Shown here: one piece after another, positions 8,964-53,553 of the stretch
Position numbering within the stretch: the stretch's first letter is position 1
How the letters are laid out: every line of letters begins with the position of its first letter
Assembly: GCF_006345805.1 (NCBI RefSeq)
Contig: NC_043016.1
Span: 7,006,001-7,070,000, forward strand
Reading direction: 5' to 3'
Length of the DNA stretch: 64,000 nt
From: Octopus sinensis
Taxonomy: Eukaryota
Position numbers and translations under genes: made by a program
The notes under the pieces: generated by a model
The model's input: the letters and a program-made list of their open reading frames with translations, nothing else
Databases searched by the model: none
What the model was told of the DNA's origin: nothing

Positions 8964-9127
8964 CTCTCAATTTTTAAGATGTATACCAGTGCTACTGAAA
9001 GTGGTGGTCTGCGAGCCATCAGCTGCCAGTACGCTGTGAGTTTCCAGAAAAGAAAGAAACATTAGAAAATGCTTATAAAATGCTTATGTAATGTTGTGTT
9101 ATTTGTTTACAGAATAAATATAAGATA

Positions 9128-9222
9128 CGGCGATACATATTCTAAAATTGGAACGATGCAGAGAAGATTAGCATAGCCCCTGCGCAAAGATGACACAAAT
9201 TCGAGAAGTGTTCCATGTTTTT
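9128..9222 (+). pseudogene. U6: U6 snRNA retro-pseudogene (about 10 nt 5'-truncated), fused to SINE-A
   Basis: cggcgatacatattctaaaattggaacgatgcagagaagattagcatagcccctgcgcaaagatgacacaaattcgagaagtgttccatgttttt aligns to canonical U6 from CGGC to the 3' oligo-T. The ACAGAGA box is mutated to GCAGAGA. Confidence 0.95.
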
Positions 9223-9226
9223 AAAA

Positions 9227-9457
9227 GGCGGCGAGCTGGCAGAAACGTTAGCATGCCGGGCGAAATGCTTAGCAGTATTTTGTCTGCCTCTACGTTCTGA
9301 GTTCAAATTCTGCCGAGGTCGACTTTGCCTTTCATCCTTTCGGGGTCGATTAAATAAGTACCAGTTACACACTGGGGTCGATATAATTGACTTTATCTGT
9401 TTGTCTGTCCTTGTTTGTCCCTTTTGTGTTTAGCCCCTTGTGGGTAGTTAAGAAATA
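9227..9457 (+). mobile_element. Full-length SINE-A (3' half of the U6-SINE chimera)
   Basis: ggcggcgagctggcagaaacgttagc...aagaaata. A 17-bp TSD agaataaatataagata at 9111-9127 and 9458-9474 brackets U6+SINE together. Confidence 0.9.
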
Positions 9458-10959
9458 AGAATAAATATAAGATAGAAAAGATAAACTTGTCAACTTTTAT
9501 TATATTCATTATATATATTGTTTGCTGTATAAATTAATATTACTAAGAAATATTACCGGTCCCTGGCACAGTGGAAAAAAAACTACCGGTATGCCACATC
9601 AGATAGTTTGAGAAGCACTGATGTATACAACACACACACACACACACACATCTGCATATACACTGTTTATAGGCTAGTTACAGTATTATTTATCCTTAAT
9701 GTATATACACTGTTTATAGGCTAGTTACAGTGTTACTCATCCTGACATAACATTTCTTATGGACTTGCTGCATTAAAAACACAATAAATGAAGGGGGAAG
9801 GCAAAAATTATTCTAACAGCAGCAGCAGCCTGTGAGATTTGCAAATTTCATTAAAGGTTTCCATGGGACTTTTCAATGTTGTGTACTCACAACCAGCCAC
9901 GGAAACAGTAAATAAAACACCCCACAGGTGTTGTAAATGGCAGTCTGGGTGAAAGAAAATCCAGTAAATGCAAATGAGGCAGCGTTATATTAAAATAGCC
10001 GAGTATGTATCATAGATAAGGATTTGGCCCAGCGTGCCAACAACAATTTTCATCTCACTCTGTTGTTTATTGTTTTAAAACAGCACATCTATAAGAGATG
10101 TTATCTCTGCACAAACACTTCAGTAACTTGGCCTATCAACAGGCCTCGACTGTTTTTCACGCTGAAGGAGAGGCCCTTAGTTTCCAACAGAGTTAGAAGC
10201 TCTCTGAACTTTGCCCAGCATGTTTTATGAATAGTTGTCTTTACTGAAGTGATAATTAATTAAAAGTGGAAGGAATGCTCTGAAAATATAATGAGCAAAA
10301 TGATAACACAGATACACATGTACACACACAGCATCATTATTATCATCGTTATATGAGCCAAGCAAAATGACAATTTGTCTAATTTTATGTTCTGGTTTCA
10401 AATTCCATGGAAGTCACCTTTGCCTTTCACTCTTGTGGGGTCAATAAATACCAGTTACATACTAGGGATCAAGGTAATTAACTAGTCCCCTCCCACAAAA
10501 TTTCAGGCCTTGTACCTTTAGTAGAAAGGATTTTATGAACACCTCTGTGCTGACATGGGTGGGATGGGTTGACACATTCTGTGTTAGTTCTTATTTGGCA
10601 TTACTACTCTCTTAGGGGTGGGGTCAATCAATCATGAATATAATTGCAGAAAAGCATAACTGGTGTAAGGTGAGTTTGAGGTGCGAATGACAGGCAACGG
10701 CAGGGTGTTAGTATCATAGTAAGAGTGACAGATGGCAAGAACAGGGTCTCTGGGGACAAGTAAATAATAATGACAGGTCACAGGAGTGTTAGGATTGTAT
10801 GTATTGATTACATACATGCCCTATGTGACCCCTTATACATGGGCATTGTCACAGGCCAGGGTAAAGTGTTAAAAGATGGTGTTAGTATAGGCTGAATAAG
10901 GGTAGATCCAGTATTACAGGGGCCACATGGGTGGTACGGAAATGAGTGGTGCCTGATCC

Positions 10960-30199: not shown

Positions 30200-30600
30200 G
30201 GCGGCGAGCTGGCAGAAACGTTAGCACGCCGGGCGAAATGCATAGCCATATTTCGTCTGCCGTTATGTTCTGAGTTCAAATTCCGCCGAGATCGACTTTG
30301 CCTTTCATCCTTTAGGGGTCGATAAATTAAGTACTAGTTACACACTGGGGTCAATGTAATCGACTTAATCCCTTTGTCTGTCCTTCTTTGTCCCCTCTAT
30401 GTTTAGCCCCTTGTAGGTAGTAAAGAAATAGGTATTTCGTCTGCCGTTACGTTCTGAGTTCAAATTCTGCCGAGGTCGACTTTGCCTTTCATCCTTTAGG
30501 GGTCAATAAATTAAGTACCAGTTATGCACTGGGGTTGATGTAATCGATTTAATCCCTTTGTCCTCTCTGTGTTTAGCCCCTTGTGGGTAATAAAGAAATA
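30200..30600 (+). mobile_element. Dimeric SINE-A with TSD
   Basis: TSD aagatgcagtaaa at 30187-30199 and 30600-30612; internal period 184 bp. Confidence 0.9.
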
Positions 30601-42327: not shown

Positions 42328-44051
42328 TAGAATCAGAGGCGGCGACGATAAGTTACATCGAGATAAAGGAAGACGATGTAATAAAGGCTATAGATGAAAT
42401 GAAATAGACTCAGCTACTGGCCCGATGGATTCCCGGCAATCCTCCTAAAGTATGTAAGAGAGTCTTAGCAAGACCACTGCAGTCCCTCTTTCAGAGCTTC
42501 CTTGCAGCTGGCAAACTTCCAAGGGGACTGAAGGAAGGTAAAATATGCCCTATTCATAAAGGAGGTAGAGCAGAGCGGAGGCAAAGAACTACAGACCTAT
42601 CTCTCTGACCTCACACATTCAGCAAGGTCATGGAACGAATAGTCAGAAGGAAACTAATCACCTTCCTTGAAGAAAATGACTTGCTGCCTGACACCCAACA
42701 TGGTTTCCGACCAGGAAGAAGCTGCTTAACTCAGCTCCTGCAGCACTATGACTGGGTGCTGAAACAACTGCTCAACACTCAAATGTGGAAGTCATATATC
42801 TCGACTTCGCAAAGGCCTTCGATAAAGTCGATCACGGAATGATATGTCACAGGCTGCGTGATCTTGGCATAGTTGGAAAACTAGGAGAATGGCTTCACGA
42901 CTTTCTGAAGAATAGAAGTCAGGTGGTAGTAGCCAATGGGGCCACTTCCATTAACACGCAAATAATGAGTGGTGTTCCACAGGGCACTGTTTTGGGACCA
43001 CTACTGTTCATAATGGCCCTTTCAGACATGCCCTCAGCCACGCAGAGATCCACGATCACAAGTTATGCAGATGATACAAAGTTTCACAGGCAATACAGAA
43101 CCCTGAGGACACTAAAAACCTGCAATGTGAGCTGGACGAAATATACAAGTGGGCTGAAAAGAATAGCATGCAGTTCAATGCTGGAAAGTTTCAAGCTTTT
43201 ACTATCAGCATGCAAAATTGAATGCAATACCAATGAATACACTGGACCCGGAGGGATTGCAATCCCAGAGGCACAATCAGTGCGTGACCTGGGTATTCAC
43301 ATGAGTGATGACGCGACCTTTCATGTACATGTTGCTAAACTGACAGTGAAATGTAGACGGCTGGCTGGCTGGATTCTTAGAACCTTTAGAACAAGAGAAC
43401 AAGAAACCATGATGGTCCTCTGGAAGACACTTGTCCTAAGCCACTTTGACTATTGCTCTCAGCTATGGTCACCATCCAGTGTCAAGTTGATCACAGAACT
43501 TGAGGCGATCCAACGAAGCTACACAAAGAAGATAGCCTCTATGCAGATGTAAGCTACTGGGAAAGACTCAAGAGATTAAAATTATACTCCCTGGAGCGTA
43601 GGCGGGAAAGATATGCCATAATATACATCTGGAAGATCCTGGAGGAAGTGTCCTGAACTTTGGCATCGAGAGTTACACAAATGCCAGAACTGGGCGCCAC
43701 TGCGTGGTGCCTAGGACTCCAAACCTGCCATCAAGATGTAGGACAAGATTCTGTGATAGCTGGGCTTCCGAGGCCCACAGCTCTTCAATATCCTCCCGAA
43801 GAACCTGAGAGACCTGCATGGGGTGGATACAGATGTCTTTAAAATGAAGCTGGATCTCTTCCTGTCAGGTGTCCCAGATGAACCAACTTCACGGCAGGAG
43901 GGGCAGATGAGGGCAGCTGCATCGAACTCTCTCATGCACCAAATAGCAGTTGCTAGAAAGCCTCCATGAAGTAAAACCAAGTAGCAACACAAATGGCGGT
44001 GCCCCAGCATGGCCACAGCTCATAGGCTGGAACGGAATCAATCAATCAATC
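42328..44051 (+). mobile_element. 5'-truncated CR1-group LINE (RT domain, 3'UTR, (AATC)n tail)
   Basis: NYRPISLTS, QHGFRPGRSC, YLDFAKAFDKVDH, SGVPQGTVLGPLLF, YADDTK, VRDLGI, DYCSQLWSP; several frameshifts. Confidence 0.95.
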
Positions 44052-52954: not shown

Positions 52955-53553
52955 TCACTGGCACCCATGATGGTGGCATGTAAAAAGCACCCATTATATT
53001 CTTGGTGTAGCAGGCATTAGGAAGGGCATCCAGACAAAGAAGCCATGCCAAATCAGACTGGATCTTGGTGCAGTGTCTGTCTTACAAGTTTCAGTCAAAC
53101 CATCTAACCCATGCCAGCATGGAAAACAGACACTAAATGATGATGATGATGGCAGACACGTTAGCACGCCGGGCGAAATACTTAACAGTATTTCGTCCGT
53201 CGTTACATTCTGAGTTCAAATTCCACCGAGGTCGACTTTGCCTTTCATCCTTTCGGGGTCGATAAATAAAGTACCAGTTTCGCACTGGGGTCGATGTAAT
53301 CGACTTAATCCGTTTGTCTGTCCTTGTTTGTCCCCTCTGTGTTTAGCCCCTTGTGGGTAGTAAAGAAATATGTATTTCGTCTGCCGCTACGTTGTGAGTT
53401 CAAATTCCGCCGAGGTTGACTTTGCCTTTCATCCTTTCGGGGTCGATTAAATAAGTACCAGTTTCGCACTGGGGTCGGTGTAATCGACTTAATCCCTTTG
53501 TCTGTCCTTGTTTGTCCCCTCTGTGTTTAGCCCCTTGTGGTCAATAAAGAAAC
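52955..53553 (+). mobile_element. RTE 3'UTR followed directly by dimeric SINE-A
   Basis: (GAT)n tail at ~53138-53150, then SINE-A with a second unit 184 bp later. Confidence 0.85.

Follow-up and report, generated by a model that had tools for sequence, protein, structure and literature searches.

Chimeric retrocopies that join the 3' end of U6 snRNA to a SINE have been described in platypus, where the partner is the L2-driven Mon-1, and in Anolis, where six copies carry AnolisSINE2 (PMC4476161). According to the available text of that survey, which reached Xenopus and in which the word invertebrate does not occur, the tail-recognising LINEs of both animals yield chimeras exclusively, poly(A) copies being absent. 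The human counterpart is a variably 5'-truncated L1 joined precisely to the 4-8 T's of U6; U6/Alu chimeras are rare, and RtcB ligation has been shown (PMC6789731, PMC11838501, PMC4476161). Two models have been put forward for U6 chimeras, template switching by reverse transcriptase (RT) and RtcB ligation (PMC11838501), and both come into consideration for non-human genomes. In crocodilian SINEU, a U1 or U2 head sits on a retroposon body, template switching has been proposed for the origin of the head, and the copies derive from masters with shared derived features (PMC4494074).

The window analyzed here is a stretch of 64,000 nucleotides from Octopus sinensis, and it contains a plus-strand unit of this kind. 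A U6 snRNA retrocopy (9126..9222, nt 9-107 of the tandem-array variant, with a T5 end) is followed by a 2-nt linker, AA (9223..9224), and by a full-length SINE-A of tRNA type (9225..9457) with an A box from 9237 and a B box from 9301. The whole unit is bracketed by a 17-bp target site duplication (TSD), also on the plus strand, whose 5' copy (9111..9127) and 3' copy (9458..9474) are identical at 17 of 17 positions. U6 thus occupies the 5' position with a complete 3' end and in the orientation of its SINE partner, while SINE-A terminates like solo copies, in its own retroelement tail. The Rfam U6 model matched positions 9118-9222 with 88.2 bits; its start extends into the TSD, and the true U6 alignment begins with nt 9 at 9126, where a TA is common to the end of the TSD and to U6 nt 9-10. 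The retrocopy has lost 2 nt by deletion and carries seven substitutions, of which one changes the ACAGAGA box, and among three types of U6 genes it is closest to the tandem-array variant (score 148 vs 128 and 136). The two halves are similarly decayed: the SINE half differs by 6.9% from a column-majority sequence built on 43 copies, and the U6 half is ~7% diverged. Neither ARAGORN nor Rfam gave a match for the tRNA identity of the SINE-A head, and its tRNA origin rests on the A and B boxes.

The linker AA is absent both from the flanks of U6 genes and from the SINE start. Solo SINE-A copies begin with AAGGCGG, with A at -1 in 79% and at -2 in 87% (n=68), and because these A's are mostly present in solos, we place the SINE start at 9225 and limit the linker to AA. 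The original prediction had described a near-complete U6 ending in TTTTT, then AAAA, then SINE-A from its first base; the T5 end and the full-length SINE stand, but U6 is 5'-truncated to nt 9, and of the AAAA only the first two bases lie outside the SINE.

The unit is enclosed in an older, dispersed element (8987..9620, no strand assigned, ~287 bp minus the insert) with 14-bp terminal inverted repeats that differ by two mismatches. It is flanked by identical copies of an 8-bp host duplication (8979..8986 and 9621..9628, likewise unstranded), and from the CAG-type terminal repeats and the 8-bp duplication we take it to be a hAT-type MITE. Among 39 non-self matches of this MITE we examined nine paralogs. 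In seven, one copy of the 17-mer runs directly into the downstream flank, which represents the empty site; the remaining two have a deletion and a different insertion at this position, respectively. Since the paralogs show the empty site, the 347 bp constitute one insert. Both window copies of the TSD carry a G at a position where most paralogs carry an A, and because the paralogs have a single 17-mer and the window copies share the G, the duplication arose at insertion. The SINE has no TSD of its own (none at 9223-9226 / 9458), so the claim of one perfect duplication around a unit inserted as a whole was borne out on each point.

Among 64 census loci, the promoter motif common to the three U6 gene types was found upstream of a single one, the gene L001. 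Because this promoter is absent from the chimera and T5 would make Pol III terminate ahead of the SINE, we consider the unit a dead pseudogene; the missing promoter and the T5 between its parts argue against transcription of the whole unit, as far as sequence motifs predict it. The one other match of the motif in the loci compared lies ~500 bp downstream of the chimera; here 16 nt (9969-9984) correspond to the octamer-bearing motif that precedes the array genes, with no U6 or Rfam match behind them, and the correspondence may be due to chance. Taken alone, the single locus is an ordinary pseudogene.

We compared junctions across U6 loci in the whole genome. For a fusion of the U6 3' end with the SINE-A start, a pattern search gave 26 matches, and the respective U6/SINE-B pattern returned 98 rows, a few of which are duplicated or doubtful. 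Reversed-pattern controls gave 0 matches. A matched U2/SINE-B pattern, a control covering SINE-B-type starts only, gave a single match vs 98 for U6/SINE-B. This pattern replaced a control made of the best 20 U2 loci, which are genes with conserved flanks and were a weak choice since they are the best scorers. The sole U2 match (L257:1100-1680, minus strand) consists of a 5'-truncated U2, a short A-rich linker and a full-length SINE-B. The U6/SINE fusions are spread over most chromosomes, and their junctions are variable, which indicates recurrent formation; together with the one TSD and the paralogous empty sites, this agrees with the predicted single-event chimera and places it among many others in the genome.

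An exact search with the U6 3' end pattern gave 384 matches in the genome, and a census was made of all 88 matches on two chromosomes (C1 and C2), 29 in a tandem array and 59 dispersed. Loci were classified by BLAST against pieces of loci and by eye, and the family letters are our own labels. Near all dispersed loci (54 of 59) are fused to a retroelement, with one gene and four unclassified loci making up the rest, and scaling of the census suggests ~300 U6 fusions genome-wide. Full-length tRNA-type SINEs account for 30 partners (9 A-type, 18 B, 2 C and 1 D), followed by 20 short 3' tails, three members of a fifth family and one non-coding element. In the last case (L118), U6 is joined, apparently at the element start, to a ~350-bp sequence whose 5' region we take to be RTE-like. 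All nine SINE-A-type and 18 SINE-B census partners with a body begin at the element 5' end, as judged by BLAST and by eye. Most SINE-A chimeras came from a pattern search in which the SINE start was required, and for this reason only the census of 59 loci is unbiased on truncation. Of the 54 census chimeras, 22 have a U6 that begins at nt 1-2 and 18 one that begins at nt 3-13; in the other 14 the start lies further downstream. No U6-poly(A) retrocopy, including solo U6 with poly(A) and a TSD, occurred among the 59 census loci.

Some census arrangements are more complex. At one locus (L121), a tRNA-like sequence leads into a 5'-truncated U6 and then into another 5' fragment of U6, a succession that may reflect serial jumps. 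Two others (L123 and L138) contain U6 3' fragments with a common non-SINE downstream flank, the former also with an inverted U6 piece upstream. Loci with U6, SINE-C and a tail were considered as triple jumps and rejected, since SINE-C with a T2 tail is a fixed subfamily (5/30 loci); for the same reason L127 is an ordinary two-part chimera.

The octopus chimeras share with those of platypus and Anolis the junction of the U6 3' end with a SINE of a tail-recognising LINE, a single TSD round the unit, frequent 5' truncation of U6 and the lack of U6-poly(A) copies (PMC4476161). They differ in the invertebrate host and in TSDs of 10-17 bp compared to 1-9 bp; the numbers of events, >100 here by exact patterns with no identity cut-off vs 40 and 6 under a strict identity filter, are not strictly comparable (PMC4476161). 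The partners here belong to at least four SINE families and are mostly full length, whereas section 10 of PMC4476161 does not state the partner length for Mon-1. With human U6/L1 and U6/Alu the octopus set has in common the intact U6 3' end, the orientation, the TSD and the strong preference for U6 among snRNAs (PMC6789731, PMC11838501, PMC4476161). Unlike in human, SINE partners dominate, begin at their first base and usually follow extra junction bases.

We read the window locus as a U6/SINE retrocopy made in a single insertion, one of many independent ones, and likely a product of a LINE RT that jumped end to end between templates; we assign this reading a probability of about 0.65. A LINE protein would bind the SINE-A tail and prime at a nick, and the RT would copy the Pol III transcript of the SINE up to its first base. 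It would then add a few untemplated bases, or meet a short A tail on U6, whereupon the cDNA end could catch the single-stranded oligo(U) of U6 by A:U or G:U wobble pairing and copying would continue. On the second strand, synthesis may have started from a short stretch of the target that matched U6 within nt 1-10, with loss of the first 8 nt of U6. The R2 RT likewise runs off at the 5' end of its template, makes untemplated additions and captures the 3' end of a second RNA; its jumping, shown in vitro, requires untemplated addition, and pyrimidines are added poorly (PMC8857657, 10.1101/2021.04.30.442027). Here, jumping is deduced from genomic junctions, and since no LINE with a SINE-A tail was found in the searches described below, R2 biochemistry serves as an analogy.

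In 30 of 32 SINE-A and 21 of 33 SINE-B chimeras, extra bases separate the SINE start from the U run. Past this run, the first base other than T is an A at 52 junctions, a C at 34 and a G at 2 (n=88, a tally that excludes the window locus, which failed a filter, and in which L091 is misfiled as B). By analogy with R2, this spectrum fits an enzyme that would add purines to the cDNA end and land on the U tail. The C is rare at solo SINE junctions (3 of 42 extra bases) and is unlinked to the array variant (10/34 vs 4/14, p=1.0), and its origin as read-through of the array gene flank was rejected on this count. It could instead belong to the U6 tail, a point on which the available text of PMC6240794 says nothing. 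A-rich linkers, such as the AA in the window, would require T additions, which are poor for the R2 RT and to that extent speak against jumping. Under jumping they need a second assumption, either that U6 carries oligo-A or that slippage takes place on the AA of the SINE. U6 ends appear shortened and A-tailed at several loci (e.g. L061, L071, L072 and L080), and USB1 is reported to trim A's from U6 ends (PMC10493513).

The main competitor, which we consider possible though clearly less probable, is that RtcB ligates U6, by its 2',3'-cyclic phosphate end, to the 5'-OH of RNA from a SINE or a LINE tail, and that retrotransposition of the joined RNA as a unit follows. This ligation was demonstrated for human U6/L1, where it requires the cyclic phosphate on U6 and the 5'-OH on the partner (PMC6789731). 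In octopus it would account for the selectivity for U6 (98 vs 1) and for the intact U6 3' ends, for the sharp start of the short-tail partners (20/54), possibly a cleavage site, and for the 12 of 33 SINE-B junctions without an extra base. The short-tail partners, along with four further loci that join U6 to internal SINE-B positions, suit cleavage and ligation equally well. Against RtcB, the partners mostly retain the first base of the SINE, like solos, and with a 5'-triphosphate acceptor RtcB gave 0/26 full-length products in vitro (PMC6789731). From the A and B boxes we infer that the SINE partners would carry such a 5'-triphosphate. In addition, true RtcB products had precise junctions, and untemplated bases at junctions were put down to RT artefacts (PMC6789731), whereas most junctions here, including the one in the window, have extra bases, and several U6 ends seem to be shortened and A-tailed. 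Template jumping fits better than RtcB because the SINE 5' ends are intact, with their presumed triphosphate, and because the junctions contain extra bases. The lone U2/SINE-B fusion also counts towards jumping, as U2 is an RNA for which no cyclic phosphate end is known.

Amplification of a U6-headed SINE family from a master chimera, in the manner of SINEU, was the other possibility raised by the original prediction and is very improbable. The 26 loci are alike in overall structure and two junction strings were seen twice, which is what such a family would offer. However, 31 of 33 junctions are distinct, both pairs with a repeated junction differ in their U6 5' ends, and three U6 variants occur among the chimeras. 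The window copy has no sibling: no other copy carries its U6 changes, and the next best is 91%. The SINE halves cover all SINE-A haplotypes of solo copies, and their distances are 11.0% between chimeras compared to 9.3% between chimeras and solos, the latter being young because they were chosen by an exact 34-mer. The nearest neighbor of the SINE half is a solo in 19 of 22 cases, a proportion that the choice of young solos favors. Solos exceed chimeras hundreds to one, which is the pattern of independent template switching in PMC4494074. Since the shared junction and derived changes that define a family in that paper (PMC4494074) are lacking, we reject a SINEU-like master; the octopus chimeras have neither master copies nor shared derived features.

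Just as improbable is sequential insertion, in which a SINE would have joined an older U6 retrocopy at the 3' end and made no TSD in doing so. One 34-mer of SINE-A has 9810 exact copies, and this abundant element often inserts into other repeats, but solo copies make their own duplications, with a TSD of >=10 nt in 22 of 45 under slightly different settings, and none is found here. Around whole U6/SINE-A chimeras, TSDs of >=10 nt were present in 13 of 28 scorable cases, one of the 13 in (TA)n, and absent from 15; five further chimeras without a detectable tail were left unscored, and the chance rate was 2.1% of 756 mismatched flank pairs. The lack of solo U6 with poly(A) and a TSD in the census, the equal divergence of both halves and the recurrence of the fusion >100 times at one point of U6 are further objections. 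Least probable of all is an artefact of assembly or library, given the perfect TSD, the paralogous empty sites, the age-matched decay of the halves and the recurrence on most chromosomes.

Chimeras of this kind are already known in vertebrates and are apparently noted here for the first time in an invertebrate. U6-SINE chimeras were already described outside placental mammals (PMC4476161), which the original prediction did not take into account. It knew of no description in cephalopods, and no invertebrate or cephalopod report was found in searches of the open literature, including the available text of PMC4758252 and PMC11481361. The finding extends U6 chimeras to an invertebrate with tail-recognising LINEs and shows a step by which SINEs can acquire new heads. 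The two models make different demands on 5' end chemistry and junction bases, so a large set with full-length Pol III partners can tell them apart. The chimera population is therefore more informative than the locus, since it favors jumping, which we hold to be probable, over the considerably less likely RtcB ligation and makes the question testable. The chances seem about even for a broader statement: that the U6 fusions, a few hundred independent events whose partners are mostly intact Pol III SINE RNAs that RtcB could not ligate, form the clearest in vivo record of end-to-end jumping by an RT, that their junctions keep untemplated additions, with C far above G, and germline U6 3' states, and that the array variant is the main germline U6. 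For annotation, these data are a warning that most dispersed U6 matches (54/59 on two chromosomes) are dead fusions and not genes.

The tandem array (C1:141.83-141.96 Mb; L009-L028 and L041-L044) comprises at least 29 U6 genes, mostly spaced by 1.1-1.4 kb. Its U6 variant has four changes in the first 24 nt, with the 5' stem and the UNCG loop kept. Among the 54 census chimeras the array variant is the commonest source of U6, with 22 assigned to it, 16 to others and 16 unassignable, which suggests from sequence that this variant may be expressed in the germline.

No LINE with a SINE-A tail was found by a PF00078 search, at 20 chromosomal RT loci or in a tail scan of ~1.07 Mb, and the sole non-SINE match of the scan (L085) is a tail-only insertion. 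The best 30 RT-domain matches (L207-L236) all lie on small unplaced contigs, many with equal score, and come either from a young, distinct LINE family or from foreign DNA that entered the assembly. A Pfam search of 20 of the 105 long frames in the window detected one RT fragment only. At least 20 sequencing runs contain part of the stretch; because of its abundant repeats, their shares were left out of the evidence. The window contains a broken LINE (RVT_1) at 42400-44050 with a ~55-nt stem-loop tail, which we presume to belong to the CR1 group; of the families compared, the one with an (ATT)n tail is closer to it than those that are RTE-like. Among 30 loci with the stem-loop tail (L288-L317), 16 have a LINE body, five SINE-C, eight the tail only and one a U6 fusion. 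The tail-only copies begin within a few bases of one point, at which all U6 fusions seen to the tail also begin, and this point is a truncation or cleavage hot spot.

SINE-A often runs into a second copy from ~nt 49, for instance at 30200-30600 and 53150-53552 in the window and at six other loci (L065, L071, L080, L081, L084 and L086). Many SINE-A duplications start with GGTAT, TATAT or AGAA, which suggests that they may be primed by a short match to the 3' end of the SINE RNA.
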